Below, one piece after another: positions 19,064 to 61,183 of a stretch of 64,000 bases of DNA. The DNA lies in contig JAMXCX010000001.1 of NCBI GenBank assembly GCA_024542985.1, positions 3,137 to 67,136 of the forward strand, in the 5' to 3' direction. The stretch's first letter is position 1, and the number at the start of each line of letters is the position of its first letter. The notes beneath the pieces were generated by a model. That model saw nothing but the letters and a program-made list of their open reading frames with translations, did not search any database and had not been told where the DNA came from. Position numbers and translations under genes: made by a program. This DNA comes from Candidatus Omnitrophota bacterium (GTDB taxonomy: Bacteria; Omnitrophota; Gorgyraeia; Duberdicusellales; 4484-171).

Positions 19064-19323
19064 ACCTGCCTGCTGTGTAGTTCTTCACAGTTTCAGTAAC
19101 AAGAAAGCAAAGATATGCAATAACAATTTTTGAGGAGGCTCTGAGGCCTTAAAAGCAAGGTATCCAGACCGAAGGGATGGATTTTTAAGGCCGAAGCGCC
19201 AGGCAAAAGTCCTGCCTGCTGCCGGCAGGCAGGACTTTTGGGTCCCAGAAAATTGTTAATGTATATCCATGGTCTTTTATCAAATGTTACCGAAATTCTG
19301 AAGTTGTACACGGTAGGCAGGCC
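19064..19323. promoter_or_regulatory. symmetric array of GC-rich CCTGCCTRC motifs (outer imperfect inverted repeats plus central palindrome CCTGCCTGCTGCCGGCAGGCAGG) directly upstream of the permease promoter
   Basis: 19066 fwd, 19211 fwd, 19224 rev, 19313 rev copies; a TTGAGC-16-TATGAT promoter lies between the left arm and the permease ATG. Confidence 0.4.
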
Positions 19324-19348
19324 TGGCTGTTGACAGCTTATACTGGCC

Positions 19349-22171
19349 TTACCGGCAAAGCCCTTGGAAAGGGCAATATCGACAACGCCTATCATGCCGG
19401 TCAGCCTCAAAAGGACAATTTAAATCAAATAATTCAGTAAATATTGCCGAAAGGGCCTCTAAGCATACTTGCATGATATCGTCTTTTTTGGAAAGATCGG
19501 ATTCTGAAAAAAGTGCTTTTCTCTGCAGTTTACGGATATTATATAATTCAGCGTTTGCGCAAATGCGAGGATAATCTTTTAAAACAAGATGATAATAAAT
19601 AGGTAATTGAAAAGACTTAATATTATTTTTTATCGCATCCCGGCTCATTGCCATATTTTTTAGGGCCGCGAAGCTCTTAGGTGCATAATTTGAGCCTCCG
19701 GTTTTATAATCGATGATTAAAATGCTGCCGTCGGAAAGTTCATCAATCCTGTCTACGGTATATCGAAAGTCAATTACATCCTCATTAAACTTTATCTGGC
19801 CCCTACGTCTTTCTTCAAGGCAGATAATTTTAGCCACTTCACGCTGGGCTTCCATTTCTAAAAACTTCTCAAGCCGGGCCCTGATTATTCCTTTCAGCAA
19901 AAATGAATCTGATTTCATACGCCTTACAATCTCTTTATCAAACTTATTATCCATCAATTTAAAAAAGCGCTTCTTAAAATTAGAATCTATCACGGGTTTC
20001 TGACCCTTAAATATTCCGAATGCCTCTTCTAACAGCTCATGGATAAAAGTCCCTATACCGGCAGCATCCGGACCCTCGAGCAAATCCTGGCTTTCCTTGA
20101 GGCCCAAAACATACTGAAAATAAAACTGCTGCGGACAAGCTAGATAAGTATTGATGCGGCTGGCAGAGTAAATCGATTCTTTTAAAAATCGTAATATTTC
20201 AGGAGTCTTTTTAACCTGCGATACTCCCACCTTAACATTTACTGAAAAATATGCTTTATAAGGCTTGATTACCTCTAACCTGTTTTGCTGTTTTTGTTTC
20301 TGCCACAGCAACCCTTCGATAAATCTACTCTTTTCTTTTTTTTGATTCTCTTCATAGATAAGATGCGTATTTTTTGCGCTAGATATAAGCCGCATAAACT
20401 GATACCTTTGTATTTCTTCTTCTTTCTCTAATCTGTTTAAGCCCAGACTCAACATAACCTCTCTGGGTATTAAGGGTTCATAAATTTTAAGTTTAGGAAA
20501 AACTGATTCGTTAGCATCCATTATAATCACATTATCAAAATTCAAAGAGCGCGTCTCCAGCAACCCCAATATTTGAGTTCCTTTTAAAGGAGACCCTTGA
20601 AAAGAAATAATCTCGCTTTGTAATTTCTGTTCGAAAACCTCCCAAATTTCAACACCGCTAAAGATTTCCTCACCGAATGAACAACTCCTAAACTCTTCTC
20701 CTATAAGGCGTAGTTTATCAATAACCTTAAAGTTAAAAGGAAAATTCAATATTAGGCTTTTGTCGATTAAAACATCAAGTAAAATCCCTAGTCTTTCGGC
20801 AAATATCTTAAAAGTATCTATATTCTCCCATATCTCAAAAAGCACCTCATGCAGCTTAAGCAGCACTTCTTTGCATTCATCAAGGCTGATTTCTATTTCC
20901 ATATTATTAAGAATTTCTGCGGAACGCAGATAAATCTTTTCTTCCTGCTCTATTTCCTTTAACCCTAAAAATAAACTTCCGCCCACTGAACTCTCTTCAC
21001 TGCCTTGCAGCAATTCTTCTATTTTATGCACAATTATACGCGTAATTCGCTGGTCCCTGAATAATTTCAAATTCTTAATTAAAGGCTGCCTTAAAACACT
21101 TAAATAGTCTTTTGTGTAATATTTATTGCCCTTTTTGCTCTTCTGAACTCTTCCTAAAGCACCAAATAAAGCATAAAATGAGCTTCTTTTTAATGGGTAG
21201 CCCATTGAAACATTAAATTCTTCTAATTCGCAAGAAACTTCTGTAAGCAAAGGAATAATAGTTTCCGGCCTGGGCACGACTATTACAGTACTATTTTTTC
21301 TGTTAATTTTTTTATTAATAATTCCCCTGACTAAACACACTTGGGAATGGATATCAAATCCCTGGTATAGACACAACCCCTCAACTGCCGGAGGTTCTTC
21401 TTTCGGCTTTATGGCCATTTTTAGTTGTAGGGAATTTTTCTTTAGTACCGACCAATGCTCTTGTGAACCCTGCCAGATACAAACCCCCTTATTCTTTTCT
21501 AAAATACCATTGATTATTTTTTGTTCTGTTGTATGTAAATAAAAAAAGTTACAAAATACTATCTTCTCAAACTCAAGCCAATCAGTATCCTTAACGGCTT
21601 TAGATGCCAACAGGTATTTTAGGCCTCGGGAATGAAAGCCTTTTTTACTCAAAGAATCATGGTAGGCTTTCCGCAAAGTTACTATATGCTCTAAGAGCGT
21701 ATTAATACTCTCCGGTATGTCGTACCCTATAGCAGCACTTTTTTCTATATTATGCAGAGATTCATCTTTTATATCCTCCAAATCCAGCTGTTCAATAAAA
21801 GAAATTAATTCTTTCGCCCAGGGAATAAATTCACTAAAAGAAATACTTTTCTTTAGTAAGTTTGGAAGATATTTTTTTGCCAAATTATAAATAAGAAAAT
21901 AAGAATCTAAACCGCCTATATTGGGTAAGTGTTCATCCCCGGCAATGACGTAATCGATAAATTCATCTATGGAAAAAATTTTGGGCGGAATAAAACTTTT
22001 CTTGATCCTTCTTGAGAGTTCTTTTCTTAGAAATAATGCCGGACGCCTGCCGCCGAAGATGCAAGCAACCCGGCTCAAATCATTATCCGGCTTTAGGTAA
22101 TTATCACATAGATAATCTGTGAGATTCCTAATAAAATTTTCTCCAAAATTATAAGTTATAACACGTTCCAT
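19349..22171 (-). CDS. addB: AddB/RexB-type helicase-nuclease subunit (PD-(D/E)XK nuclease with C-terminal Fe-S cysteines)
   Basis: 940 aa; C-terminal nuclease domain with IIDYKTG and CRYCPFQGLC cluster; immediately downstream of addA-like gene. Confidence 0.75.
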   Translation of the reverse strand: MERVITYNFGENFIRNLTDYLCDNYLKPDNDLSRVACIFGGRRPALFLRKELSRRIKKSFIPPKIFSIDEFIDYVIAGDEHLPNIGGLDSYFLIYNLAKKYLPNLLKKSISFSEFIPWAKELISFIEQLDLEDIKDESLHNIEKSAAIGYDIPESINTLLEHIVTLRKAYHDSLSKKGFHSRGLKYLLASKAVKDTDWLEFEKIVFCNFFYLHTTEQKIINGILEKNKGVCIWQGSQEHWSVLKKNSLQLKMAIKPKEEPPAVEGLCLYQGFDIHSQVCLVRGIINKKINRKNSTVIVVPRPETIIPLLTEVSCELEEFNVSMGYPLKRSSFYALFGALGRVQKSKKGNKYYTKDYLSVLRQPLIKNLKLFRDQRITRIIVHKIEELLQGSEESSVGGSLFLGLKEIEQEEKIYLRSAEILNNMEIEISLDECKEVLLKLHEVLFEIWENIDTFKIFAERLGILLDVLIDKSLILNFPFNFKVIDKLRLIGEEFRSCSFGEEIFSGVEIWEVFEQKLQSEIISFQGSPLKGTQILGLLETRSLNFDNVIIMDANESVFPKLKIYEPLIPREVMLSLGLNRLEKEEEIQRYQFMRLISSAKNTHLIYEENQKKEKSRFIEGLLWQKQKQQNRLEVIKPYKAYFSVNVKVGVSQVKKTPEILRFLKESIYSASRINTYLACPQQFYFQYVLGLKESQDLLEGPDAAGIGTFIHELLEEAFGIFKGQKPVIDSNFKKRFFKLMDNKFDKEIVRRMKSDSFLLKGIIRARLEKFLEMEAQREVAKIICLEERRRGQIKFNEDVIDFRYTVDRIDELSDGSILIIDYKTGGSNYAPKSFAALKNMAMSRDAIKNNIKSFQLPIYYHLVLKDYPRICANAELYNIRKLQRKALFSESDLSKKDDIMQVCLEALSAIFTELFDLNCPFEADRHDRRCRYCPFQGLCR

Positions 22172-22204
22172 GTCTCACCGGTCGTAAACCGTAAATTATA
22201 AGTT

Positions 22205-25200
22205 CTAAGTAGCGGTTACTTCCGCTTTTTTTAATTCATCAAGATAAACCAAAATGCCTCTTACCTTATGCCTAGGATATATATCACTGATAATCCGGAT
22301 ATATTCGTTAACCTGCTTTTTGTGTTGTTGTTCGTCAATTCTAGATAATTTATAATCAACTATCCAGACTTCATCATCTTTGACTATCAGGCGGTCGATT
22401 CTCTTCAAATCACCAAAGCTGTTGGCTACCTCTTTCTCACAAAATACATCTCCCTCACTGATATAAAAAATATCTCTTAAATTTTCGGCAGAAATAACTT
22501 GTTTTACTTTTTCGCATATTCCAACAGATGAAATTTCAAAAAAAGGATACTTGAGTTTGGCAAATTTAATTGCCTTGATAATTAAAGAGTCTAAATCCTG
22601 TTTCTGACAATTACCTACCCGGGAAAAAACTGCATGCAAAAAATTTCCTTCTAGTATTTTTTCTCGGTTCTCTACTTCTTTCGCATCGCCGAATTCATCT
22701 TTAAGTGCCTCTATCCAATCCTTATACACAGAGCAGGGAATACCGATAAAAAGTTGATCTTTATCTCTTTTATAATGTTTATATTTTTTTTGTAGGCCTT
22801 GGATTTTTATATCCTCCGGTATAAGAAATCTAACCTTATTCGTTGAGTTAGAACTTTTCTTAGGAATAAATGCATATAATTCATATTGGGCTCTTGTTAA
22901 GGCGACATAAATATTATTTAACTCATCAATACAAGCTTTCTTGTAATCCTGTGAATAAATTTTTTGCAGAAGAGGCGAAAAAGAACGGTAGACTTTAGTA
23001 ATACGCATTAAACCTAACTCTGGGCCTTCCTCATTCACAACATGGGAATTCGTGCCTTTGCCGGCGGTTTCAGGAACAATATCCATGCGTAAAAAGGGAA
23101 TAATTACTACTGCAAACTCTAACCCTTTCGCCTTATGGATAGTAAGCACTTTTACTGAATCACTGTGTGCGGCATTAACATATAAATCATCCGGGGAAGG
23201 ATCCTTTAAATATAATAGAAAATCTCCTAAGCCAGTGTATTCATCTTCATTTGTTTTTACCAACTCTAGAAATTTCATAAAAAACCCTTGCGAATCTTTA
23301 AATTTACGCATTAAGTCAAATCTCTGGTATATGCTCACTAAAAGCTCGTAAGGCGAGATAAATCCTACAGCCTTTAAAAACTTATCTATACATTCTTCCC
23401 ATTGTTGGGGAAATTCCTGGCTAAACGATTTATAAACCGCTTTTTTACTGCGAAATTTTCTTTCTTTATGTAAAGTAAATAAAAAATCTCTGATATCATC
23501 TTTGGGAATACCACTGACTGCTGAAAATATGTCGCCTAAAATAAAAGCCGAAAAACTCAAATCATCTATCGGGGAATGCAAAAATTTCAAAAAATATATA
23601 AGTTCTTTTGTCAAATTATTTTCAACTACGTTCAAGGTCTTCTCAGACTCAACAGACATTCCCGCCCCGAGAAGCCAAGAGGTAACTAGCTCAACTTCAC
23701 TGTTATCTCTAGTAAGGATAGCGATATCTTTCTCTCGAAACCTCCGGCTTAATTTTTTTATTAGCTCAAGTATTTTTTCCTGCATTATGGCATCACGTTC
23801 CTGTTGATTCTTTTCATTAATTCTCTCTATCTGCACGTACCCGAAATCATTTTCTACCTTATGCTGCTGAAACGAATCTTTGAAAATAGAAACTATATCT
23901 TCTGCTGACTGGGTATCAGCCAATTCTTTTACGATTTCGGAAGCAATTAACATCTCTTTTAGGTTTTCTTTCGAAAAAATCCTGTTATTAAAGTTAACTA
24001 TTTCTTTCTGGCTGCGCCAATTTTTTGCTAAATTAGTACCTCTAACACCAAACTGGGAGAATTCTTTCTTGACATCATCAAACAATCCAGCCTGTCCTCC
24101 TCTAAACCGGTATATTGCCTGTTTTTTATCTCCGACATAGAAAAACGTGCCTCCGGTTGATAAACCTTCTTTTACCATTTCATAGAGATTATGCCACTGC
24201 AGGAGGCTTGTGTCCTGAAACTCATCAATTAGATAATGCCTGAAACGAGTAGCCAGCCTATAGTAGGCTTCAGCAATAGTTATGCCATTTTCAGCGAAAA
24301 GAAGACGGGCTTTTGCGTTGAGTTCCTCTAGAAATAAAATATCCTCCTTTCGGGAAACTGCTTGAAAGAATTGAGCCAGCCGGTTAAAAAGTTTAATATA
24401 AGGGTTATAGGCAACCGTTGCCTCTAATTCTATAAGTCCTTTTAGCTGCTCGAAAATATTTTTCCACTTCTTGCTAAAAGAATTACCGGCTAAACTTTCC
24501 TTATTCATTCTTGCAAAAGGACTCATAAGCGCGGTAGGCAAAGATGATGTATCAAAAATATCTTTGTTTTTATCAAGAAATCTTATTATAGATTTTTTTG
24601 CCTTAGCATTAAGGCCTTCGGGAAAATCAAGCGAAAGATTATTAATTTGTTTATAGATATGTTTTTTCTTTTTTATCACATCTAAGCTCAAACCTTCAAA
24701 AGCCGCAAACCTCTTTCCATATTTATTACTCAGCCTGAAAAGAGAACGCATCAATTGCAAGATATCATCCCGGGGAAACCAACCTTCTCTGTTTTCAACA
24801 AATAGATAATGCTCCAGGAAATCTTCCAAAAATTCAAATACTTCCGCTTGTGTATGCGCCTGCTCAATAACTAAATCGAGACAGTAAGAAAGGTAATTTT
24901 CATAATTTCTTTTGATTTTAAAACTTGCCGAGCGATTGATATGTATAGCGCAGCCCAACAGAAGAGAATTGATAAAGCTATCTATTGTCTGGACCTGAAA
25001 AAAATTGTAGTTTGTAATAATCGCATCCATAAGCTCCAGGGCTTTACTTTGAGCCTTTTGCTTATCTAGACCTAAAAAATCAAAAATATCCTTCTCCTCA
25101 TCAGGCTCAGAAAATGAATCTAAAGCTATTCTTTTTAAAAACTCTAAAATTCTCTCCTTCATCTCCAGGGTGGCTCTATTGGTAAAGGTAATAGCCAAAA

Positions 25201-25381
25201 TATCCCTTAAAGGGTTTTGAATCTTTTTAAAATCTGAATTTATAAGCAAATATAGGTATCTTTTGGCAAGAGCCCGGGTTTTTCCCGATCCGGCCGAGGC
25301 TTCTACAACAATAACCTTAGGAGAATTGGAAGAGTTTAGGTCGGTTTCAACATTCATCAAATACTTGCGATCCGGAAACAA
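22205..25381 (-). CDS. addA: AddA-type ATP-dependent helicase/nuclease (UvrD-like helicase plus C-terminal PD-(D/E)XK)
   Basis: Walker A VVEASAGSGKTRAL; UvrD-like helicase motifs; C-terminal nuclease motif ...IVDYKLS. Confidence 0.8.
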   Translation of the reverse strand: MFPDRKYLMNVETDLNSSNSPKVIVVEASAGSGKTRALAKRYLYLLINSDFKKIQNPLRDILAITFTNRATLEMKERILEFLKRIALDSFSEPDEEKDIFDFLGLDKQKAQSKALELMDAIITNYNFFQVQTIDSFINSLLLGCAIHINRSASFKIKRNYENYLSYCLDLVIEQAHTQAEVFEFLEDFLEHYLFVENREGWFPRDDILQLMRSLFRLSNKYGKRFAAFEGLSLDVIKKKKHIYKQINNLSLDFPEGLNAKAKKSIIRFLDKNKDIFDTSSLPTALMSPFARMNKESLAGNSFSKKWKNIFEQLKGLIELEATVAYNPYIKLFNRLAQFFQAVSRKEDILFLEELNAKARLLFAENGITIAEAYYRLATRFRHYLIDEFQDTSLLQWHNLYEMVKEGLSTGGTFFYVGDKKQAIYRFRGGQAGLFDDVKKEFSQFGVRGTNLAKNWRSQKEIVNFNNRIFSKENLKEMLIASEIVKELADTQSAEDIVSIFKDSFQQHKVENDFGYVQIERINEKNQQERDAIMQEKILELIKKLSRRFREKDIAILTRDNSEVELVTSWLLGAGMSVESEKTLNVVENNLTKELIYFLKFLHSPIDDLSFSAFILGDIFSAVSGIPKDDIRDFLFTLHKERKFRSKKAVYKSFSQEFPQQWEECIDKFLKAVGFISPYELLVSIYQRFDLMRKFKDSQGFFMKFLELVKTNEDEYTGLGDFLLYLKDPSPDDLYVNAAHSDSVKVLTIHKAKGLEFAVVIIPFLRMDIVPETAGKGTNSHVVNEEGPELGLMRITKVYRSFSPLLQKIYSQDYKKACIDELNNIYVALTRAQYELYAFIPKKSSNSTNKVRFLIPEDIKIQGLQKKYKHYKRDKDQLFIGIPCSVYKDWIEALKDEFGDAKEVENREKILEGNFLHAVFSRVGNCQKQDLDSLIIKAIKFAKLKYPFFEISSVGICEKVKQVISAENLRDIFYISEGDVFCEKEVANSFGDLKRIDRLIVKDDEVWIVDYKLSRIDEQQHKKQVNEYIRIISDIYPRHKVRGILVYLDELKKAEVTAT

Positions 25382-25547
25382 TTAAAGCAGATTAACTCTA
25401 AATTTAGTGAAGATGATCTTTACTTCTAAAGTATGCCCGGTGAAAGGGTCAGGATTTGTTCAGGGTCAATGCTAGAGCGGCGTTTCAAACTTAAATCCAA
25501 ATGGCGGTGTTTTGGGCCGCAAAAGTATAAAGGCTAACAAAAAGAAT

Positions 25548-25901
25548 CTATTTTAAGAATTTTTCTTTTAACTTTTTGTAATAGTAGGTACAAAATTTAT
25601 CTTGTTTAGCTTGTTCTATATCCCTTATTTCTCCGCCGCAAAAATAGCCATTTTCAGGATCGATAAATTCTGACCACACTACTAATACCTTCAATTCAAC
25701 AGAATCTAATTCCTCAGGAATAAAGTAATCAATAAGAAGGACTTGCCCTTTCTTCCACTCGAGCTCAGAAGAAAAGCATATACCCATAAGCGTAAGGTCC
25801 TTACTTTTGCCTTTGTGCATCTTACCTGCTTCTTCTATGGACCTTATCTCCAGGAAATCTCCCGCGTTTAGCCTTATTAATTGCCTTCTATTATTTTCCA
25901 T
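25548..25901 (-). CDS. PilZ domain-containing protein (putative c-di-GMP receptor)
   Basis: RRQLIR (RxxxR) and DLTLMGICF (DxSxxG-like) motifs. Confidence 0.6.
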   Translation of the reverse strand: MENNRRQLIRLNAGDFLEIRSIEEAGKMHKGKSKDLTLMGICFSSELEWKKGQVLLIDYFIPEELDSVELKVLVVWSEFIDPENGYFCGGEIRDIEQAKQDKFCTYYYKKLKEKFLK

Positions 25902-26660: not shown

Positions 26661-26683
26661 TACCTACCTGCCGGTAGGTAAGG
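26661..26683. repeat. GC-rich palindromic motif TACCTACCTGCCGGTAGGTAAGG (variant of CTGCCGGCAG family) ~45-65 nt upstream of mazG
   Basis: Read directly. Confidence 0.45.
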
Positions 26684-36033: not shown

Positions 36034-38681
36034 CAGCTTGTAAATTTACGAAAGGCTTCTTTTACCTTATCTAAAAAATCATCACCCATATTTAACACGA
36101 CTCCGCGAACTATTTTATCTGTTCCTCCGCCAGTCAAAGATAACTCTTTTTTAAACCCGGAAATAAATTTTTTACAACTTAATCCCTTTTTAAAAAGATC
36201 ATCTGTAGCTGAACAAATAAAAATGTCTTTACCTTCAGCGCTCCTTACGATAAAAATAAATACCGAACCTATCCCTTGTTTTAGCCTATCTGACAATAAG
36301 GGCATTATACGGGATTGTTCTTTACTTGAAAATGAATCATTATTAAAATTAAATAAAAAATTAACCCCATTTATACTTTCTTTACCGATAATATCCCCTT
36401 TTTGAGATATTATTTGTTCCTTTTGCCGGGTAACTTCCTGATTAATTTGCTTCTGGCTGAGCTTTTCATCTTCCTTTGAACTCTTGCTCTCTTGCTCTTT
36501 CGCGCTCTTGAGAGCCTGCCTTAAGTTTTCTGCTTCCTTACCCACTACAGCTCTAATACGCCTGATGCCGCTGCTTATAGAAGTTTCCGATTCAATTTCA
36601 AAATCTCCTATTTGGGAAGTATTATCAACATGAGTTCCGCCGCATAATTCTTTACTGTAATCAGAAATAGAGACTACTCTTACTTTATCCTGGTATTTAT
36701 CCTTAAAAAAAGCAAGTGCGCCTTGTTTTTTTGCTTCTTCCAAGCTAAGCTCTTTCTTCTCAACCTTTTGCGAATTTGAGATGAATCTCATGACTAAATT
36801 TCCTACTTTTTCCAATTCCTCTTTAGTCAACCGATTAAAATGTGTAAAATCGAATCTGAATTTATCTTCATCGACCAAAGAACCTTGTTGAACCACGTGC
36901 TCTCCTAAAACTTTCCTTAAAGCGGCCTGCAGGAGATGAGTGGCACTATGGGCCCTGGCCAGAGCTTGCCTTCTTTCTTTATCGACTGAAGCAGCTGCCT
37001 TACCCGGATGTATCTCTCCCTTGATAACTTTTCCTTTATGAAGAATAGAAACACCTGCCATTTTATAGACTATTTCTACGCTAAATTCTCCACTTTTTGT
37101 CTTTATGCGTCCCTTATCTGATAACTGGCCGCCGCCCTCCGGGTAAAAGGGTGTTTTATTTTCCCCAAAATTAATCAGTCCTTCCTCACCTTCTTTTAAA
37201 ACAGCTGCTTCCTTTGTGTAATCAGTTTTCTCATTCTTAACAGAAAAAATTTGAACTATTTCTGTTTCTAATTCTAAATCTTCCTGACCGGCAAAAATAC
37301 CTACACCTTTAACAATAGTAACATTGTCTTTAAAAATATTTCCATCAAACATACTTGCCTTACGGGAGCGCTCCTGCTGTTCTTTAAGCAGTTTTTTAGC
37401 TCCTACAAAATCTATAACCTGCTCATCTATACCATAATTACTAGCGGTGGCTGCAATTGCATCAAAAGAAAACCCCCAAGTATCATGAAGATTAAATAAT
37501 GTTTGTGCGTCTATTTTATCTTGTGATCCTTTTTTTACTTTTTCGGACTCAGCTAAAAACTTTTGGGCTCCCTGTTTTAATATAGGAATAAAACTTTTCT
37601 CCTCAGCCTTAATTACTTTGCTAATAATGTCTTTTTTCTTTAAGATATCATCATAGGCCTTAGCAGGATAAGCATCTTGCATAAGCTGCCCATAGATATT
37701 AACAAGTTCATATAAGAACGGCTTATCATTTCCTAAAAGATATGCGTTGCATAGCGCTTTCCTGATAATTTTACGTATCACATATCCTCGACCCTCATTA
37801 GAAGGGTATATACCGTCAGAAATCGCAAAAGTTGCCGCCCGGGAATGGTCAACGATTAAATATATTAAGCTTTTATTTTTTTTGTCCAGCTGATTAACTT
37901 TTAGTATTTTCTGAACTAGCTCAACTGCCGGCTGTAAAATATCAATTTCAAAATTGGATTCTTTACCCTGTAAGACTGCAGCCATTCTCTCTAGGCCCAT
38001 TCCGGTATCAATATTTTTCTGCGGCAGGGGCTCTAATTTATTTTTCCCTACCCGGTTAAACTGGGTAAAAACTAAATTCCAAATCTCAACAAACCGGCCA
38101 CAGCTGCAATCGGGATTACAACTTTTTTTACCGCAACCAATAGTCTTCCCTCTATCAACAAAAATCTCTGAACACGGCCCGCAAACTCCGTTGGGTCCCT
38201 GGGAAGGAGCATTTGCCGGCCAATAATTACTTTCCTCCCCCAGTTTTACTATTTTTTTCTCCGGCACCCCAATACAATTTTTCCAAACAGAATAAGCTTG
38301 TTTGTCATCTTTATAAACAGAGACCCATAAATTTTCTTTTGAAATATTCACCTCTTTAGTTACAAATTCCCAGGCAAATTCAATTGCTTCTTTTTTAAAG
38401 TAATCACCAAAGGAAAAATTACCCAGCATCTCAAAGAAAGTATGGTGGTAATCTGTCTTGCCAACTCTCTCTAAGTCTCCGGTGCGCAAGCACTTCTGGC
38501 AAGATACAGCTCTCTTTATATCCTTTTTTTCTCCTAAAAAATAGGGCTTAAACTGGTTCATTCCGGCAGAGGTAAAAAGAAGAGATTTATCAGCAGGCAC
38601 TAAGGTATCTGAAGAAAAAAGAGTATGACTTTTCTTCTTAAAAAACTCTAAAAATCTTTTTCTTAATTCGTTAGTTTTCAA
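36033..38681 (-). CDS. alaS: alanine--tRNA ligase
   Basis: 882 aa; class II aaRS catalytic, editing (HxxxH...CGGTH) and C-terminal DHHA1 domains. Confidence 0.95.
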   Translation of the reverse strand: MKTNELRKRFLEFFKKKSHTLFSSDTLVPADKSLLFTSAGMNQFKPYFLGEKKDIKRAVSCQKCLRTGDLERVGKTDYHHTFFEMLGNFSFGDYFKKEAIEFAWEFVTKEVNISKENLWVSVYKDDKQAYSVWKNCIGVPEKKIVKLGEESNYWPANAPSQGPNGVCGPCSEIFVDRGKTIGCGKKSCNPDCSCGRFVEIWNLVFTQFNRVGKNKLEPLPQKNIDTGMGLERMAAVLQGKESNFEIDILQPAVELVQKILKVNQLDKKNKSLIYLIVDHSRAATFAISDGIYPSNEGRGYVIRKIIRKALCNAYLLGNDKPFLYELVNIYGQLMQDAYPAKAYDDILKKKDIISKVIKAEEKSFIPILKQGAQKFLAESEKVKKGSQDKIDAQTLFNLHDTWGFSFDAIAATASNYGIDEQVIDFVGAKKLLKEQQERSRKASMFDGNIFKDNVTIVKGVGIFAGQEDLELETEIVQIFSVKNEKTDYTKEAAVLKEGEEGLINFGENKTPFYPEGGGQLSDKGRIKTKSGEFSVEIVYKMAGVSILHKGKVIKGEIHPGKAAASVDKERRQALARAHSATHLLQAALRKVLGEHVVQQGSLVDEDKFRFDFTHFNRLTKEELEKVGNLVMRFISNSQKVEKKELSLEEAKKQGALAFFKDKYQDKVRVVSISDYSKELCGGTHVDNTSQIGDFEIESETSISSGIRRIRAVVGKEAENLRQALKSAKEQESKSSKEDEKLSQKQINQEVTRQKEQIISQKGDIIGKESINGVNFLFNFNNDSFSSKEQSRIMPLLSDRLKQGIGSVFIFIVRSAEGKDIFICSATDDLFKKGLSCKKFISGFKKELSLTGGGTDKIVRGVVLNMGDDFLDKVKEAFRKFTS

Positions 38682-54786: not shown

Positions 54787-54847
54787 GTCAACATTATTCT
54801 GAAATATAGCGCTAAAATCAAATTGCCTTGATTCAGCAATTACGCTA

Positions 54848-54867
54848 GCAACTGCCGGCAGGCAAGC
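54848..54867. repeat. GC-rich palindromic motif GCAACTGCCGGCAGGCAAGC (CTGCCGGCAG family) upstream of yvcK-like gene
   Basis: Read directly, ~65 nt upstream of the 54786 start. Confidence 0.45.
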
Positions 54868-54870
54868 TTA

Positions 54871-55341
54871 TTATCTTACTACCCGCTGCTGGTTATCCAA
54901 CAACATAAGCACATCTTTTTCATCTTTAACACTTTTAAGCCTCTGGACAAGGTATTTATCACGCAGAATTCTAGCCAAAAACGCCAACATCTTAAGATGC
55001 AAGCCTGCCTCTTTTTGATTGGAAAGAAGAAGAGCGATAACGTTAACCGGTTCTTGGTCTAAAGAGTCAAAATCAACTCCTTCTTTGGAAATAGCTATGC
55101 AGATTATAATACTTTTTACTGAGGTAAGCCTAGCATGAGGAAAAGCGATATGATTACCAATAGCGGTTGAACCCATCTCCTCTCTTTGGCAGATAAGCTT
55201 GAGAATTTCTTTTTTTTCACGGCTTTCTACTTTTCCTTTCTGGACAAGATGATCAAGAATAACAGATACAGTATTCTTTTTGCTTCTTTTTTTTAACCCT
55301 AAAATAATGCCATCTTTATCTAAATAATCCAAAATATTCAT
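54871..55341 (-). CDS. ptsN: PTS EIIA type-2 (EIIA-Ntr, PtsN-like)
   Basis: REEMGSTAIGNHIAFPHARL...PVNVIALLL...HLKMLAFLARIL. Confidence 0.75.
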   Translation of the reverse strand: MNILDYLDKDGIILGLKKRSKKNTVSVILDHLVQKGKVESREKKEILKLICQREEMGSTAIGNHIAFPHARLTSVKSIIICIAISKEGVDFDSLDQEPVNVIALLLSNQKEAGLHLKMLAFLARILRDKYLVQRLKSVKDEKDVLMLLDNQQRVVR

Positions 55342-55380
55342 ATAGTCAAAAAAATATTTAAGCAGAAAAATGATAACTAC

Positions 55381-55398
55381 TCTTCGCGTACGCGAAGA
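55381..55398. promoter_or_regulatory. perfect 18-bp palindrome TCTTCGCGTACGCGAAGA ~45 nt upstream of ptsN start (candidate operator)
   Basis: Read directly; GC-rich palindrome in AT-rich promoter region. Confidence 0.4.
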
Positions 55399-55418
55399 TA
55401 TATTTTAGTCAACCTTCA

Positions 55419-55443
55419 CCTTGCCTGCCTGCCGGCAGGCCTG
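55419..55443. repeat. GC-rich palindrome CCTTGCCTGCCTGCCGGCAGGCCTG (CTGCCGGCAG family)
   Basis: Between tRNA-Gly 3' end and ptsN start; followed by CTGTTTGCTAAAAAACAG hairpin. Confidence 0.5.
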
Positions 55444-55505
55444 TTTGCTAAAAAACAGTAATTATTTTGTTCACTGTAAACCTTGCAGCCAAAAGAGCAT
55501 TTATC

Positions 55506-55579
55506 AGCGGAGGAAGGGAATTGAACCCTCAACCTTCACGTTGGCAACGTGACGCTCTAGCCGATTGAGCTACCCCCGC
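55506..55579 (-). tRNA. tRNA-Gly(GCC)
   Basis: Minus-strand GCGGGGGTAGCTCAATCGGCTAGAGC... cloverleaf; anticodon loop TTGCCAA; T-arm GAGGGTTCAATTCCCTT. Confidence 0.8.
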
Positions 55580-55659
55580 AGTTACAGCTATAAGCTATAA
55601 GCTTTAAGTTGTAAGTATAAAGAGCAAGCACTTTCTAGCGCTGTAGCGAAATCGGGAAA

Positions 55660-55745
55660 CCGATTGTTCAATGAGACTTGAACTTTTGCAAGTAGTAAGG
55701 CTCAGCAAAAGTTCTTAGTCGAATTAATCCCGACGAGCGCAGCGA
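55660..55745 (-). repeat. inverted copy of ~85-nt intergenic repeat family (see 58871-59040)
   Basis: Reverse complement aligns to the unit1/unit2 junction of the rpsB-upstream tandem repeat (…gtcgggattaattcgactaagaacttttg… and …caaaagttcaagtctcattgaac…). Confidence 0.55.
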
Positions 55746-55752
55746 TGTCGGG

Positions 55753-55815
55753 GAGCTACCCCCGCAATTATAGCTTTAAGCTACAAGCGGTAAGCTGTAA
55801 GCTTTAAGTTGTAAA
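55753..55815 (-). other. duplicated 5' end (14 nt) of tRNA-Gly plus upstream leader (direct repeat of 55567-55625, period ~187 bp)
   Basis: gagctacccccgca + ...agct(t/a)taagct...gctttaagttgtaa(a)g repeated; copies flank the inverted repeat element. Confidence 0.5.
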
Positions 55816-55909
55816 GAACAAATACAGAAAATTAGTACTTATTTTTTCAATGATATAATATTTATTGCGAATCAATTCTACTATCGATTATTAACAATCA
55901 GCGACTATG

Positions 55910-55991
55910 TGCGGACGGGGAGAGTTGAACTCCCACCTCTTACGAGACTAGATCCTAAGTCTAGCGCGTCTGCCAATTCCGCCACGTCCGC
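55910..55991 (-). tRNA. tRNA-Leu(TAG)
   Basis: GCGGACGTGGCGGAATTGGCAGACGC...; anticodon loop CTTAGGA; long variable arm; discriminator A. Confidence 0.8.
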
Positions 55992-56041
55992 TAATATACA
56001 GACGCTGGCTTTAATATCTTATCTTTGCACTGAAATAATCG

Positions 56042-56115
56042 TGAGCCGCCCCAGGATCGAACTGGGGACAGCCGCCTTAAAAGGGCGGTGCTCTACCAAA
56101 CTGAGCTAGCGGCCC
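56042..56115 (-). tRNA. tRNA-Lys(TTT)
   Basis: GGGCCGCTAGCTCAGTTTGGTAGAGC...; anticodon loop CTTTTAA; T-arm CCCCAGTTCGATCCTGGGG. Confidence 0.8.
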
Positions 56116-56149
56116 GCAGTGCGTTATCCTTTGATTACAAAATAAAAGA

Positions 56150-56710
56150 TCAAAACTCTTTAAGCTCTCTCTCTTTGTCTTCCAAAATCTTATCTATACT
56201 TTTTATGCAGCTATCAGTTAGTTTCTGCAATACATCTTCTGACTTAAATCTATCGTCTTCAGTAATCTTTTTGCTCTTCTCTAAGCTTTTTATTTCTTCC
56301 TTCCCATCTCTTCTCACTGTTCTAATAGATACTTTGCCTTCCTCAACTATTCTTTTAACTATTTTTATCAATTCTTGCCTACGCTCCTGCGATAAAGGCG
56401 GCACTATTAACCTTATGATTTTTCCATCGTTAACCGGAGTAATTCCTAGATCCGATTGCAAAATAGCCTTCTCGATTTCCTTAGAAGAAGAAGGATCATA
56501 AGGGCTTATCACAATCATTCTTGCTTCAGGTATTCCTATGGTTGCAATTTCTTTAAGCAATGTCAGTGTCTCGTAGTAATTTACCTTAATCCCTTCGACC
56601 ATTTTAGTATTGGCTCTACCTGAACGTAACTCGGCTAGTTCTCGCTTAGTAGCCTCTATCGCTTTCTTCATATCCCTTTCTATTTCTTTTAAAATTTCTT
56701 TTGTCAGCAT
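56150..56710 (-). CDS. frr: ribosome recycling factor
   Basis: Start taken at MLTKEILKEIERDMKKAIE... (internal Met of track ORF); conserved rpsB-tsf-pyrH-frr order. Confidence 0.85.
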   Translation of the reverse strand: MLTKEILKEIERDMKKAIEATKRELAELRSGRANTKMVEGIKVNYYETLTLLKEIATIGIPEARMIVISPYDPSSSKEIEKAILQSDLGITPVNDGKIIRLIVPPLSQERRQELIKIVKRIVEEGKVSIRTVRRDGKEEIKSLEKSKKITEDDRFKSEDVLQKLTDSCIKSIDKILEDKERELKEF

Positions 56711-56724
56711 AATAGGAGACTTTT

Positions 56725-57453
56725 TTACCTGATAATAGTTCCAATTTTCTGGCCACAAACTACTTTTTTTAGATTACCTTTCTGCATAAAATTAAATACA
56801 ATTATCGGCAGTTTATTTTCCATACACAAGCTAATAGCTGTAGTATCCATTATCCGCAAGCCTTTATTAATCACCTGCATATAGTTTAATTCTTTAAACA
56901 TCTTTGCCTTCCTGTTTCTAAGAGGGTCGCACGAATAGACTCCATCTACTTTTGTGCCTTTGAACAATGCATCGACCCCTATCTCTACACTTCTTAAAGC
57001 TGCCGCCGTATCAGTAGTAAAATAAGGATTGCCGGTTCCGGCAACAAATATCACTACTCTTTTTTTCTCCAGATGCCGCACAGCTCTTAGGCGAATATAA
57101 GGCTCAGCTATCCTTTCCATCTCAATTGCAGTCATAACCCGGCTGGGAATACCCTGATTTTCTAAAGCATTTTGCAAAGCAAGACCATTTAAAACAGTGG
57201 CTAACATTCCCATGTAATCGGCAACTGTCCTTTGCATCTGGAGTTCGCTAGATTTAGAAACCCCTCTAAATATATTACCGCCTCCAACTACCAGAGATAT
57301 TTCTACTCCTAAATTCACTATCTCTTTAATTTGTTTAGCCAAATGCGCACAGACGGAAGTATCAATACCGTGAGAATATCTGCCGGAGAAAGCTTCTCCG
57401 CTTAGTTTAAGAAGAATTCTCTTATACTTAGCACTTGTCTTTTTGGTCTTCAT
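56725..57453 (-). CDS. pyrH: UMP kinase
   Basis: KRILLKLSGEAF... Confidence 0.9.
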   Translation of the reverse strand: MKTKKTSAKYKRILLKLSGEAFSGRYSHGIDTSVCAHLAKQIKEIVNLGVEISLVVGGGNIFRGVSKSSELQMQRTVADYMGMLATVLNGLALQNALENQGIPSRVMTAIEMERIAEPYIRLRAVRHLEKKRVVIFVAGTGNPYFTTDTAAALRSVEIGVDALFKGTKVDGVYSCDPLRNRKAKMFKELNYMQVINKGLRIMDTTAISLCMENKLPIIVFNFMQKGNLKKVVCGQKIGTIIR

Positions 57454-57991
57454 CTTTTTCTCCTAATGAAAAACGTATAAACCTTTTGATTACAACGTTT
57501 TCGCCAGTTTGAGACACAATATCTCTTAAGTATTCTCCAACGGAAATTTTATTATTTTTTATAAAAGGCTGTTCCAAAAGACAATGCTGCTTTACATACT
57601 CATTTGGATTTTTGACATCTTTTAAAAAATCAGAAGGAATGTTCTCTTTCTTTATATACTCAGGGTTACTCGCTGCTACCTGCATAGCCATATCCTTAAC
57701 AAATTTCTTAAATATTTCTGTGCGTCCGACAAAATCAGTTTCGCAATTTACCTCAATTAGCACTCCTAGATTACCCCTAAAATGTACATAAGAATCTATC
57801 AAGCCCTCATGAGCTGCTCTTGCGCTCTTTTTCTCAAGCATTCTTATTCCTCTCTTTTTCAATATTTTTAGAGCCTCGTTGAAATCACCCTCAGATTCAC
57901 TTAAAGCTTTTTTACAATCATTAACACCTAGAGATGTCAACTCTCTCAACTTCTTAATGTCAGTCAAGCCCACCTTATTCCTCCTTTTCAT
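57428..57991 (-). CDS. tsf: translation elongation factor Ts (short form)
   Basis: IKKLRELTSLGVNDCKKAL UBA-like N-terminus; 187 aa. Confidence 0.85.
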   Translation of the reverse strand: MKRRNKVGLTDIKKLRELTSLGVNDCKKALSESEGDFNEALKILKKRGIRMLEKKSARAAHEGLIDSYVHFRGNLGVLIEVNCETDFVGRTEIFKKFVKDMAMQVAASNPEYIKKENIPSDFLKDVKNPNEYVKQHCLLEQPFIKNNKISVGEYLRDIVSQTGENVVIKRFIRFSLGEKDEDQKDKC

Positions 57992-58021
57992 GGTAACTTT
58001 TCAAAACTTCTATTCTTTAGC

Positions 58022-58813
58022 CTAGGCATCTACTACTTTATCGCCTTTTGGGTGTAGATTTTCTGCTGCTTTTGGTTCAGAATCTGCTGCATCAGCTACC
58101 AACGTCTTATCTTTTACGGTATCTTTAGTCTTTTTCAGACCTTCTTCAATGGCCTCAATAAGACACGAAGTTATATATTTTACTGATTTTATGGAATCAT
58201 CATTACCTGGTATTGGGTAATCAATAATCTCAGGGTCAGCGTCAGTATCAATTAAAGCTACTATAGGTATGTCTAGCTTACGCACTTCTCTTACGCAGGA
58301 AGTTTCCTTTTTAGGATCAACAACATAAACACAATCAGGTAAAGTCTCTAATGAAGTCACTCCGCTGTAGCTCTTTTCCATTCTTTCTAATTGACGGTTT
58401 AATTTCACCACCTCTTTCTTTATCATTTTATCAAATCCACCCGTATCTCTTTTCTTTACAAGCTCTATATATTTATTTACCCTGCTTCTTACGGTAGCAA
58501 AATTGGTAAGTAACCCCCCGACCCATCTCTCGGTTACATAAGGCATATCACAAGAAGAAGCCATCTCCTTAATCAACCCCCTAAGCTGTTTTTTAGTAGC
58601 AACAAAAAGAATCTTTCCTCCTGTTTGAGCTTGCTGCTTTAAGAAATCTTTCGCTTCCTGGATTTTTTGGGCCGTTTTCTCCAAATCGATTATATATACA
58701 TTCTTTTTTTTGCCAAAAATAAACCCTTTCATTTTGGGATTCCAGTGTTTACTCAAGTGGCCAAAATGAACGCCACTTTCTAATAATCCTTTAATTATTT
58801 CCGGTAAAGCCAT
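58022..58813 (-). CDS. rpsB: 30S ribosomal protein S2
   Basis: Start at MALPEIIKGLLESGVHFGH (ATG 58811-58813) preceded by AAGGAGG Shine-Dalgarno. Confidence 0.9.
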   Translation of the reverse strand: MALPEIIKGLLESGVHFGHLSKHWNPKMKGFIFGKKKNVYIIDLEKTAQKIQEAKDFLKQQAQTGGKILFVATKKQLRGLIKEMASSCDMPYVTERWVGGLLTNFATVRSRVNKYIELVKKRDTGGFDKMIKKEVVKLNRQLERMEKSYSGVTSLETLPDCVYVVDPKKETSCVREVRKLDIPIVALIDTDADPEIIDYPIPGNDDSIKSVKYITSCLIEAIEEGLKKTKDTVKDKTLVADAADSEPKAAENLHPKGDKVVDA

Positions 58814-58870
58814 AGTACTTTTCCTCCTTACAATGCTGATACTCAGCACAAGTTTCAACTACACAGTTTT

Positions 58871-59040
58871 TCTTCGCTGTTGGCTCGAAAAACTATAAGT
58901 CTCATTGAGCCCTGCGACGCTACTCGCGTCCCAGGATTAATTCAACTAAACACTTTTGGGCGCTTCGCTTCAAAAGTGTAAGTTTCATTGAACCCTTGGG
59001 GTTAAAACCCTAAGGGTTTCCTGCGTCGGGATAAGACTAA
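58871..59040. repeat. two diverged tandem copies of an ~85-nt intergenic repeat (unit1 58871-58960, unit2 58961-59040)
   Basis: Shared blocks: cttcgct...aaaa(c/g)t(a/g)taagt(c/t)tcattga(g/a)ccc ... gcgtc(cca/g)gga(t)taa...actaaa; also present inverted at 55660-55745 and in modified form at 61091-61225. Confidence 0.55.
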
Positions 59041-59167
59041 AAATACAGTAAAATCACTAGTATTTAGACAACTGCTTAATCTCCAATTAGACAGAAAGTA
59101 TATCATATTTTCTAATATTTTCAACAATATATTATCTATAGATTTCTCGATATAAAATCAGGAGTAT

Positions 59168-60985
59168 CTATTCAGAAAATTGTAAATCGTAGAACTTTTT
59201 ATATAAACTATTTGCTTTTAATAATTGCTGATGTGTTCCTACCTCAGCAATTCTACCTTTATCCAAAACGGCTATTCTATCGGCCTTTTGGATAGTGGAA
59301 AGCCGGTGGGCAATAACAAAAGAAGTTTTTCCTTCCATTAAGGCATAAAGAGCATCCTTTATTAATTGCTCGGATACAGAATCAAGATGGCTAGTTGCCT
59401 CATCTAAAATCAAAATAGGCGCGTCTTTTAAAATCGCCCGGGCAATAGCAATTCTTTGTTTCTGGCCTCCGGACAATCTAAAGCCTCTGTCACCTACAAT
59501 TGTATTGAAATTTTCCGGCAATTTCATAATAAACTCATAGGCATGAGCTTTTTTGGCTGCTTCGATAATTTCAGAAGATGAAGCTCCCTCTTTCCCGTAA
59601 GCGATATTATCTTTTATGGTCGTATTAAAAAGAACAGTCTCTTGAGAAACAATTGAGATTAGGGAACGCAGGTCTTTTAATTTAACTTCTTTTATATCTA
59701 AACTATCTATACAAATTGTTCCCTTCTGCGGGTCATAAAATCTCAGCAATAATCCCACCAGGGTAGTTTTACCTGCCCCAGAATGCCCAACCAAAGCCAG
59801 CACTTCTCCCTTTTTTACCTCTAAATTAATATCTTCCAATATATAGCCATCTTCCTGGTTATACTCAAAACTAATTCCCTTAAAGGCAATTTGAGCACGC
59901 AGTTGCTTTAATCCTTTAGCTTCCCCTGCGTCTTTTATTGTAGGCTTTTGTTCTAGAATTTCATAAATCCGTGCAGATGCTGCTAGAGCTTTTTGGTTAA
60001 TGGCATGGACATTGGCTAATTTCTTTAAAGGACGTATCATAGACAAAAGAAAAATAAGAAATGTAGCAAAAACACCAAAAGAAAGCTTACCCGCAAGTAA
60101 CTCCGAGGATATTATGCACATGACTGCTATACCTCCTGCAATACCAAAAAATTCAGTCAAAGGTGATAATAGAAGGATTCTCTTAGTGCTTTTCAAAGTG
60201 AATTTATAATAATCCTGATTGATATTTTTAAATCTCTCCATTTCATAACTCTCACGGCAAAAAGCCTTTACAACATGTGCACCCTGGATGGTCTCTTGCA
60301 TTTGGGAATTTAAATCCGCTATTTTCTTTTGCACCTCTACGCTGAATTTTTTAACTCGCTTGCCTATCCTTGCAACCGGAATCATTATCGGCGGAAAAAT
60401 AAAAAAAATAACCAAGGGTAATTTCCAAGATATCTGAAAACCAATCCAAAGAGCCATAAAAACAAAAAATACCAATTTCATTGACTCAAAAATAAAATCC
60501 CTAAGGGCGTAAGAAATTGCATTGGTAATTATAGCAACATCATTGGTAACGCGGGACATTAATTCTCCCACCCTTTGTTTACCGTAAAAATCCAGGGATA
60601 AATCCTGTAATTTAGCATATAATTTATTTCTTACATCCTTTACTACACCTTCACCGACAACATTCATGAGGTAACCCTGCAAGAAGATGAATAGCCCTTT
60701 AACCAGAAACAAAATCGGCAGAAATACAACCATGTACTTAAAAAACACTGCCGGTTCTATTGAATTTAATTTCTCAACAATATCAGCTAAAAATTGAGGT
60801 AATTGACCGGGAATAACTATCGGTTTGTTGGTAAACACTCTATCGGTTAGAGGCCCCATCATGCCTAAGCTTATCCCCTCAAAGATAGTAGATGCCCCCA
60901 TGCAAAGAGCTGCCACAGCCAGGGTTTTGATATAAGACCTTGCAAACTTAAGCAATTTAAAGTATTCTTTCAGGTGTTTTTTCAT
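59168..60985 (-). CDS. msbA: ABC transporter permease/ATPase, MsbA-like lipid exporter
   Basis: Six-TM N-terminal domain plus Walker A GHSGAGKTTL, signature LSGGQKQRIAIARAIL; start chosen at ATG MKKHLKE (track ORF begins at TTG 12 nt upstream). Confidence 0.8.
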   Translation of the reverse strand: MKKHLKEYFKLLKFARSYIKTLAVAALCMGASTIFEGISLGMMGPLTDRVFTNKPIVIPGQLPQFLADIVEKLNSIEPAVFFKYMVVFLPILFLVKGLFIFLQGYLMNVVGEGVVKDVRNKLYAKLQDLSLDFYGKQRVGELMSRVTNDVAIITNAISYALRDFIFESMKLVFFVFMALWIGFQISWKLPLVIFFIFPPIMIPVARIGKRVKKFSVEVQKKIADLNSQMQETIQGAHVVKAFCRESYEMERFKNINQDYYKFTLKSTKRILLLSPLTEFFGIAGGIAVMCIISSELLAGKLSFGVFATFLIFLLSMIRPLKKLANVHAINQKALAASARIYEILEQKPTIKDAGEAKGLKQLRAQIAFKGISFEYNQEDGYILEDINLEVKKGEVLALVGHSGAGKTTLVGLLLRFYDPQKGTICIDSLDIKEVKLKDLRSLISIVSQETVLFNTTIKDNIAYGKEGASSSEIIEAAKKAHAYEFIMKLPENFNTIVGDRGFRLSGGQKQRIAIARAILKDAPILILDEATSHLDSVSEQLIKDALYALMEGKTSFVIAHRLSTIQKADRIAVLDKGRIAEVGTHQQLLKANSLYKKFYDLQFSE

Positions 60986-61015
60986 GGTTAAAATCAAGGA
61001 ATTTTACCACACCGA

Positions 61016-61044
61016 TTGACTTTTCACAAGAGATTTGATACAAT
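61016..61044 (+). promoter_or_regulatory. sigma70-like promoter TTGACT - 17 nt - TACAAT driving the plus-strand leader/Gfo-lpxB operon
   Basis: Read directly; only near-consensus -35/-10 pair in this divergent intergenic region. Confidence 0.45.
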
Positions 61045-61098
61045 CAGCAAACAGAAAACAACGGACAGATCGCTAATTTCTGACATCTGACTCTTGAA

Positions 61099-61183
61099 AT
61101 GGAGCCCCACCCGGGCTAAAGCCCGGGGTTCCCTTAGGGGCGCAATCCCTGCCTACCGGCAGGCAGGCCCGACCCGCCTCCAT
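61099..61183 (+). ncRNA. structured GC-rich 5' leader element closed by AUGGAG/CUCCAU helix (candidate riboswitch-like or attenuator RNA)
   Basis: Contains hairpin CCCGGGC-UAAA-GCCCGGG, CCCUUAGGGG and the palindrome CCUGCCUACCGGCAGGCAGG; related to the 85-nt repeat family. Confidence 0.35.
61147..61170. repeat. GC-rich palindromic motif CCCTGCCTACCGGCAGGCAGGCCC (CTGCCGGCAG family) in msbA / Gfo-lpxB divergent region
   Basis: Read directly; lies inside the structured plus-strand leader. Confidence 0.45.

Follow-up and report, generated by a model that had tools for sequence, protein, structure and literature searches.

A short GC-rich palindrome in intergenic DNA of an Omnitrophota genome: a probable insertion element shared with many bacterial phyla and viral contigs

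Background

Five copies of a GC-rich palindrome lie in intergenic DNA of a 64,000-nucleotide stretch from a genome of Candidatus Omnitrophota (GenBank assembly GCA_024542985.1, contig JAMXCX010000001.1, positions 3,137 to 67,136 of the forward strand; hereafter the window), and the question is what these palindromes are. A preliminary description had offered two readings, operators of a dimeric regulator or a family resembling the repetitive extragenic palindromes (REP), and had pointed out that three of the five sites stand at genes of a module resembling the phosphotransferase system PTS-Ntr. The palindromes, termed here sites A to E in the order of their positions, were followed into related loci, near-identical strains, a collection of species genomes and viral contigs. 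We consider it likely that each of the five sites is a degenerate copy of an insertion element that is very short, palindromic and rich in GC, with the consensus CCTGCCTGCCGGCAGGCAGG, a perfect palindrome of 20 bp with the structure (CCTG)2-CCGG-(CAGG)2. The element appears to be non-autonomous and mobilised in trans, and we assign it to the REP-like selfish palindrome families.

Results

The family of five palindromes was confirmed at the positions first reported. A scan with CTGCCGGCAG and at most one mismatch returned six matches in the window against 0.57 expected, a count of six or more being reached in none of 100 shuffled sequences; the gapped form CCTGCCNNNNGGCAGG with up to two mismatches was present nine times against 0.81 expected. 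The sixth match to CTGCCGGCAG, at position 37925, lies inside a gene and is chance-like. All of the sites A to E are intergenic (Table 1). Intergenic DNA amounts to 5,482 nt or 8.6 % of the window, simple arithmetic gives a chance of 0.086^5, about 5e-6, for such an outcome, and thus the placement is far from random. Likeness among the window copies is restricted to a core of 12-18 nt built of tetranucleotides, (CCTR)n-CCGG-(YAGG)n, and the flanks are unrelated. Site A is a copy with three additional central bases (TGC), embedded in an A/T-rich outer stem. Around it stand two half-sites missing from the preliminary description, which joined as CCTGCCTGC^CGGTAGGCAGG make up one 20-mer interrupted after position 9 by 237 nt; comparison of the flanks of this outer copy (AGAATTA vs CCTGGCT) revealed no target duplication. 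The contig of a third strain (L245; L-numbers designate retrieved loci) ends exactly at the left half-site, as is expected of a multi-copy repeat. Site B has the nitroreductase stop (26751) on one side and the mazG start (26617) on the other, site C lies 4 nt past the ptsN stop codon and 62 nt ahead of the yvcK-like start, and site D is located in the spacer between tRNA-Gly and ptsN. The names given to the adjoining genes in the preliminary description were confirmed.

Many bacterial phyla, and viral contigs as well, share the element in unchanged form. One genome per species was scanned with the query CCTGCCTRCCGGYAGGCAGG, allowing one R and one Y position, and the 20-mer was detected in at least 120 stretches with unrelated flanks, where arithmetic with a uniform base composition predicts about two chance matches, and a much smaller number for AT-rich genomes. 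Hosts among the matches listed were the cultured Bacteroidota Winogradskyella echinorum, Olivibacter oleidegradans, Flagellimonas yonaguniensis, Longitalea luteola, Flavivirga and Thermobacterium salinum, many lineages of the candidate phyla radiation (CPR), at least nine Omnitrophota, Planctomycetota, Nitrospirota, Chloroflexota, Bdellovibrionales and Ignavibacteria as well as metagenome-assembled genomes (MAGs) labelled gamma- and deltaproteobacteria, the identical 20-mer spanning at least ten bacterial phyla. The symmetric form was counted 80 times among these listed matches and two single-base variants 25 and 21 times; in the variant CCTGCCTGTCGACAGGCAGG two compensating changes preserve the symmetry. 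Viral contigs scanned with CCTRCCTGCCGGYAGG yielded 118 stretches, about 40 of them with the full 20-mer CCTGCCTGCCGG[C/T]AGGCAGG, with unrelated flanks and GC contents between 33 and 71 %. The 20-mer was essentially absent from plasmids (7.3 Gb) and cultured phages (2.3 Gb), partial matches being at chance level only, thus its distribution is broad, not universal. A literature search by sequence string or keywords found no description of the 20-mer and, for the sequence string, unrelated primer matches only; most subscription journals lay outside its coverage and an earlier description is possible, yet the cross-phylum element appears to be new.

Interrupted and uninterrupted versions of the same target were found side by side at tRNA genes. 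Four of the 238 loci in the family analysis (L148, L175, L110 and L216) carry a small GIY-YIG open reading frame (ORF; Pfam PF01541) between a truncated duplicate of a tRNA 5' part and the intact tRNA, in the order tRNA 5' fragment, 20-mer, GIY-YIG ORF, intact tRNA. The upstream duplicate differs from the intact copy by exactly the 20-mer, whose insertion point is the 3' margin of the D-loop and, in L216, additionally the anticodon loop. This presents five insertion events in four loci, two of them in L216, each with an uninterrupted twin at the same locus; no base was duplicated and no target base was lost in any of them. Since the versions differ by exactly 20 bases without target duplication, the element is a discrete inserted unit of 20 bases. 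A different GC palindrome occupies the same D-loop position in L177. After removal of the 20-mer from tRNA-like fragments ARAGORN detected no full tRNAs; the fragments proved to be shortened duplicates, each next to an intact tRNA.

Copies accumulate in intergenic DNA: in loci with a GC content of at most 0.5, 19 % of the copies were inside long open frames compared with 73 % of random positions, and the spacers that hold them were co-directional (35), divergent (11) or convergent (7). The element usually enters between a purine and G or T. The preceding base was a purine in 58 of 60 oriented copies, the following base was G or T in 55 of the 60 and A in none, and nested copies were always at CCG^G, which is the same purine-G junction. 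An outer inverted repeat of at least 6 nt was present in the flanks of 17 % of the copies and 5 % of the controls, which places the element often in the loop of a larger hairpin. In L234 the 20-mer is situated within a canonical terminator, AAAAAACCCCGC..GCGGGGTTTTTT, a form shared by window site A; the element was also seen in pseudo-tRNA copies, at their D- and anticodon-loops, and at the centre of copies of itself.

Copies in this Omnitrophota lineage sit in DNA that related genomes lack. Phylogenetic footprinting, proposed earlier as a check, was performed on about 85 kb of syntenic or related Omnitrophota loci with 70-78 % protein identity. Relatives with 76-78 % YvcK identity keep the gene order lpxB-gfo / msbA-rpsB-tsf-pyrH-frr-tRNAs-ptsN-yvcK-HPr-ptsI, and no palindrome copy was found in the 85 kb, which include the surroundings of the permease-EIIA orthologue in two loci. 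Sites C, D and E are located in about 75, about 110 and 165-183 nt, respectively, that are missing from the shorter spacers of the relatives (Table 1). In the gfo / msbA spacer the conserved promoter block was kept and GC-rich hairpin DNA was gained on the gfo side. Other GC-rich repeats, ..CCCTTCGACTTCGCTCAGGATCGA.. / ..GAACGAAGTGAAGGATCTC.., were present in a relative's spacer upstream of the permease-EIIA orthologue (L247 9859-10000); we take them to resemble repeats of many environmental genomes.

Sites A, B and D were identical in a second strain (ENA ERZ23499028; 99.76 % identity over 14.5 kb and 99.93 % over 21.8 kb; site B seen in L244). The site C palindrome was absent from this second strain (L001, the 14.5-kb segment), whose spacer is 15 nt shorter and heavily substituted: window positions 54787-54870 and L001 positions 3214-3279 differ by about 25 substituted positions and a 15-nt indel within one 84-nt spacer, in which nearly all strain differences of the 14.5-kb segment are concentrated. 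Most of these differences are G/C in the window and A/T in L001. The patch could have arisen by recombination or local hypermutation.

Table 1 Positions of the palindromes, of the spacers and blocks around them, and of GIY-YIG genes at tRNAs
Feature	Position	Strand	Description
Site A hairpin	19205-19239 (core 19211-19233)	none	15-bp stem AAAAGTCCTGCCTGC / TGCCG / GCAGGCAGGACTTTT
Outer copy around site A, left half-site	19065-19073	none	CCTGCCTGC
Outer copy around site A, right half-site	19311-19321	none	CGGTAGGCAGG
Site B	26663-26683	none	CCTACCTGCCGGTAGGTAAGG; degenerate, 4 mismatches to the 20-mer consensus
Site C	54852-54866	none	CTGCCGGCAGGCAAG; short copy
Site D	55424-55443	none	CCTGCCTGCCGGCAGGCCTG; 2 mismatches, contains the perfect 14-mer GCCTGCCGGCAGGC
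Site E	61148-61167	none	CCTGCCTACCGGCAGGCAGG; same as the variant counted 21 times in the species-genome scan (matches listed)
ptsN to yvcK spacer (site C)			84 bp in the window; 4 bp or 4-bp overlap in relatives
Expanded tRNA-Gly to ptsN spacer (site D)	55342-55505	-	164 nt in the window; 45-50 nt in relatives
gfo / msbA divergent spacer (site E)			230 bp in the window; 50-63 bp in relatives
GC-rich multi-hairpin block carrying site E	61045-61227	+	about 183 nt; not in relatives
GIY-YIG gene at tRNA, L148	3550-3810
GIY-YIG gene at tRNA, L175	2115-2402
GIY-YIG gene at tRNA, L110	454-816
GIY-YIG gene at tRNA, L216	1400-1738
GIY-YIG gene at tRNA, L241	2727-3038
GIY-YIG gene at tRNA, L235	2359-2571

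The block that carries site E extends from the divergent promoter (TTGACT 61016-61021, TACAAT 61039-61044) to the gfo start codon at 61228. Its spacer has a GC content of 0.53, the window one of 0.37. Three or four hairpins are present, the last of which is terminator-like; this hairpin, CTCGGTCTAAAGGCCGAG with GTTTTG behind it, stands about 17 nt upstream of the ATG. The gfo ATG of the relatives follows the -10 box after 2-3 nt, which suggests a leaderless gfo mRNA, and the insertion of the block may have created an attenuator-like leader for gfo in the window. A structured RNA or riboswitch in this block was considered and rejected: the block folds well (z -3.5) but is missing from the relatives and matches no family. 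With the covariance models of Rfam 15, three tRNAs alone passed the gathering threshold in the whole window, and the matches in regions A and E were far under threshold and implausible.

Besides site D, the expanded spacer between tRNA-Gly and ptsN contains 11 nt copied from the interior of tRNA-Gly, GTGAAGGTTGA, at 55409-55419, which adjoin site D, and an unrelated second palindrome, TCTTCGCGTACGCGAAGA, a perfect one of 18 bp at 55381-55398, 25 nt from the region of GTGAAGGTTGA and site D. The hairpin modules CCCGGGCTAAAGCCCGGG, CTCGGTCTAAAGGCCGAG and TCTTCGCGTACGCGAAGA of the window did not recur in the retrieved loci. An exact-protein look-up of the ptsN product of the window returned no record. 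Elsewhere in the window, six consecutive ORFs of 109-634 aa without Pfam match (754-6892, minus strand) adjoin a 140-aa protein with a prepilin N-terminal methylation motif and may form a pilus or pseudopilus block of uncharacterised proteins.

Further repeats were noticed in the retrieved loci. The palindromes CCGCCAGCTGGCGG and CCGATAGCTATCGG recur each in five unrelated loci, the former as (T)CCGCCAGCTGGCGG(A) in CPR and other MAGs (L137 3333, L144 2858, L145 161, L169 967, L178 2963 and 4469). The GC-rich palindrome CCCGATAGCTATCGGG recurs in Bacteroidota (L151 5453, L180 5426, L196 1633, L215 319, L227 3288), and some copies of CCGCCAGCTGGCGG and CCCGATAGCTATCGGG are at most 50 nt from a 20-mer; these palindromes may belong to the same element class. 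In the viral contig IMGVR_UViG_3300025106_000007 (L118 3920-4128, L046 632-2700) the 21-mer ATGCCTACCGGCAGGCAGGCC is repeated in tandem at least 10 times, and 42-nt compound palindromes built of the 20-mer stand on both sides of the large terminase gene. ParB-family genes stand beside the 20-mer in L126 (2446-3539), L192 (7455-8000), L113 (1-900) and L085 (1417-3471). This adjacency is weak, with a modest excess over expectation, and was noticed post hoc.

Discussion

The tRNA duplicates, the constant junction and the recurrence of one exact sequence argue for an insertion element, and a number of observations weigh against it. A mobilising enzyme was identified neither in the window, where no ORF has a transposase domain or resembles the REP-associated tyrosine transposase RAYT, nor in the 238 loci, in which no RAYT (Y1/HUH) gene was found either and an all-against-all clustering of 5,759 ORFs linked no transposase; the clusters consisted of phage structural genes, histidine kinases, ABC ATPases and ParB only. 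Pairs of half-sites 0.04-4 kb apart had no parent insertion sequence (IS) or mobilising enzyme between them and enclosed ordinary genes for a terminase, an amidase and glycosyltransferases. Empty sites were recovered for none of the window copies; a metagenome scan for site E with a gap of 0-30 nt had no match, filled allele included, and two viral-contig scans for empty sites (L014, L068) had none either. The only polymorphic site of the window, C, is a messy patch and presents no clean difference or excision of 20 bp. All window copies are imperfect, so that their membership in the family rests on a likeness of 12-20 nt, and the copy number of five is a count for the 64-kb window. Finally, a 7-bp direct repeat adjoins 6.7 % of the copies and 0.25 % of the controls (exact in L068, L189 and L229, with an exact 8-bp repeat in L014), in conflict with the five duplication-free insertions. 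The flanks show a lag-7 periodicity about five times commoner than in control spacers, and the 7-bp repeats may reflect heptamer arrays of the same spacers rather than insertion chemistry. Degenerate tandem arrays of 7-8-nt words were observed on both sides of the 20-mer in L203, L194, L213, L081, L029, L222 and L229, in L203 with the 8-nt word forms GAACCGAG and GAACCCAG.

The GIY-YIG genes suggest another origin of the 20-mer, which we regard as unlikely: it could belong to the biology of small free-standing GIY-YIG homing nucleases, as a recognition or cleavage site, a protective disruption or a repair product, and solitary copies would then mark past nuclease activity. The GIY-YIG profile detected nine ORFs in the 238 loci, seven or eight of them within 150 nt of a copy, and the order of tRNA fragment, 20-mer, nuclease gene and intact tRNA is recurrent. 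A homing cassette able to restore the gene it targets would be expected to have such a layout. The tRNA-Gly of the window has a cassette-like layout as well. About 49 nt (55753-55801, minus strand), comprising the first 13 nt of the gene (GCGGGGGTAGCTC) and about 36 nt of the upstream region, are duplicated about 170 nt upstream of the intact gene (55506-55579), and behind the fragment a different GC hairpin, CCCGACATCGCTGCGCTCGTCGGG, takes the position of the D-loop; no ORF is present. However, a GIY-YIG gene is near only about 5 % of the copies and none is in the window, and the cassette of L235, with GIY-YIG gene and tRNA duplication, lacks the 20-mer, thus the element is not an obligatory part of the cassette. 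The association may also be indirect, the cassettes making neutral pseudo-tRNA hairpins that are good insertion targets. The tRNA-inserted GIY-YIG genes encode about 80-100 aa and were seen in CPR bacteria, Bacteroidota, Bdellovibrionales and a viral contig (Table 1).

Conservation of the hairpins as intrinsic terminators or RNA-stabilising 3' structures, with the shared sequence as a mere result of hairpin selection, is quite improbable. Since almost all genes of the window are on the minus strand, each of the sites A to D also follows a gene or tRNA on the transcribed strand, at a distance of 4-150 bp. Among the five, the terminator scan detected only site A, with its 15-bp stem and T-runs on both sides; it was called on either strand, with folding energies of -29.9 and -30.9 kcal/mol and z-scores of -5.3 and -5.5, and it probably terminates transcription; the 20-mer in the terminator of L234 fits this picture. 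T-runs are absent from sites B to E, z-scores are weak at sites B, C and E, the stem of site B measures 8 bp with z-scores of -1.6 (minus strand) and -2.75 (plus strand), the palindrome of site C is outside the minimum-energy fold, and site D forms a moderate hairpin (z -3.0). Site E is the sole copy in a truly divergent promoter region. The asymmetric variant has no bias in orientation to transcription (7 vs 5), and selection for hairpins leaves one exact cross-phylum 20-mer and the insertions into pseudo-tRNA loops unexplained. With an insertion element, effects on adjoining genes are probably by-products of hairpin formation. The position of site E in the 5' leader of gfo-lpxB probably makes a structured leader, too, an incidental product.

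A function as operators of a dimeric transcription factor that controls the PTS-Ntr-like module and its neighbours is very improbable. The sites are palindromic and lie 44-210 bp upstream of start codons, as had been described, but the prevailing minus-strand orientation puts sites A to D equally downstream of other genes. Three of the five adjoin EIIA-type or yvcK-like genes; this adjacency holds, while the link to the PTS-Ntr module comes about because the spacers on both sides of ptsN are lineage-specific insertions. Relatives that share the gene order lack the motif in their orthologous spacers, an observation that the preliminary description itself had named as one against operators, and the spacer between ptsN and yvcK in the relatives leaves no room for one. 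Site C is missing even in a near-identical strain. The same 20-mer stands beside unrelated genes in at least 120 genomes and in viruses, convergent spacers included, and the genes adjoining copies in the 238 loci form no coherent regulated set; insertions into pseudo-tRNAs and into the element's own centre are likewise foreign to operators. An artefact of sequencing, library or assembly, suggested by the adapter- or linker-like look of an identical short palindrome in unrelated assemblies, has a negligible probability, as the 20-mer was present in isolate genomes of multiple laboratories, long-read complete chromosomes, a single-cell genome and short-read MAGs, has degenerate and compensated variants and a strong intergenic bias, is essentially absent from plasmids and cultured phages, and recurs as copies A, B and D in the independently recorded assembly ERZ23499028.

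With regard to an insertion element, we propose tentatively, as the most likely route, that a single strand which forms a hairpin would insert into DNA that is single-stranded in a loop. Such a route would resemble those of REP/RAYT and IS200/IS605, which are likewise duplication-free. As the main alternative, the small GIY-YIG nuclease encoded beside several copies would take part in the process.

The assignment to REP-like families, the second of the original readings, was supported in kind, although several REP features are lacking and the spread is far wider. Like the REP/REPIN-RAYT systems and their mosaics (BIMEs), the 20-mer is a short GC-rich multicopy palindrome, nearly always extragenic and often clustered with other palindromes, it causes no target-site duplication and it can terminate or stabilise RNA. 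REP palindromes measure 20-40 bp, typically number tens to hundreds in a genome and usually flank the gene of their cognate RAYT. A conserved tetranucleotide, GTAG or CGTC, forms the head of a REP at one of its ends (PMC3733652). The 20-mer is without such a head, GTAG being present only inside the T-variant, and it is not listed in the REP surveys PMC3733652 and PMC12306157. Instead of being specific for a species or genus it is identical over at least ten phyla and viruses, its insertion targets include hairpin loops and the centre of the element itself, and no RAYT was found in the window or the 238 loci.

Elements of the IS200/IS605 family and their gene-less derivatives (PATEs) share the hairpin-based insertion of single-stranded DNA without target duplication. 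Their left and right ends, however, carry different subterminal hairpins, and insertion takes place on the 3' side of a defined tetra- or pentanucleotide, whereas the 20-mer is a single symmetric hairpin with a preference for a purine before and G or T after it as its only flank preference, and no TnpA gene was found with it. DDE-derived miniature inverted-repeat transposable elements (MITEs) are non-autonomous and intergenic with two inverted ends, which would correspond here to abutted arms of 10 bp, and the 7-bp direct repeat at a minority of the copies is a further likeness; against this stand the five controlled insertions without duplication and the lack of a parent IS with these ends. 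To our knowledge, 20 bp is far below the size of any described MITE. GC clusters of yeast mitochondria and the PstI palindromes of Neurospora are GC-rich sequences dispersed through AT-rich spacers, close to tRNA genes. Free-standing endonuclease genes of the GIY-YIG and LAGLIDADG types occur alongside them, and their mobility was deduced from presence and absence. The fungal elements, which resemble the 20-mer in these respects, are organellar, longer and lineage-specific. The uptake sequences of Neisseria and Haemophilus and the cyanobacterial HIP1 are also short over-represented words, sometimes terminator-paired or palindromic, but as words of 8-12 nt they occur in genes and spacers of one lineage through recombination or uptake bias, in contrast to discrete 20-bp insertions common to phyla.

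Conclusions

Annotation of the window palindromes as a regulon is unwarranted. With some reservation we put forward that CCTGCCTGCCGGCAGGCAGG might represent an undescribed kind of mobile DNA that moves as a duplication-free unit of 20 bp, homes to hairpin loops of DNA or RNA (D- and anticodon-loops of tRNA genes, terminators, its own centre) and has spread horizontally and unchanged through at least ten phyla and viruses. It would possibly be driven by a small GIY-YIG nuclease that builds tRNA-duplicating cassettes, and would perhaps be one of a class together with CCGCCAGCTGGCGG and CCGATAGCTATCGG. If truly mobile, it would be the smallest transposable unit known to us and an unusual case of one exact non-coding sequence common to distant phyla and viruses, an identity that would imply either that it spread horizontally in recent times or that a widely shared enzyme recognises it. 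Short-read assemblies break at such elements, as illustrated by the contig end of L245 at a half-site; the elements also make hypervariable spacers such as that of site C, and add hairpins to leaders and 3' ends of transcripts. The association with GIY-YIG genes offers a lead to the function of a very common, uncharacterised protein family, and the 20-mer could mark gene flow among uncultivated lineages, e.g., CPR bacteria and Omnitrophota.

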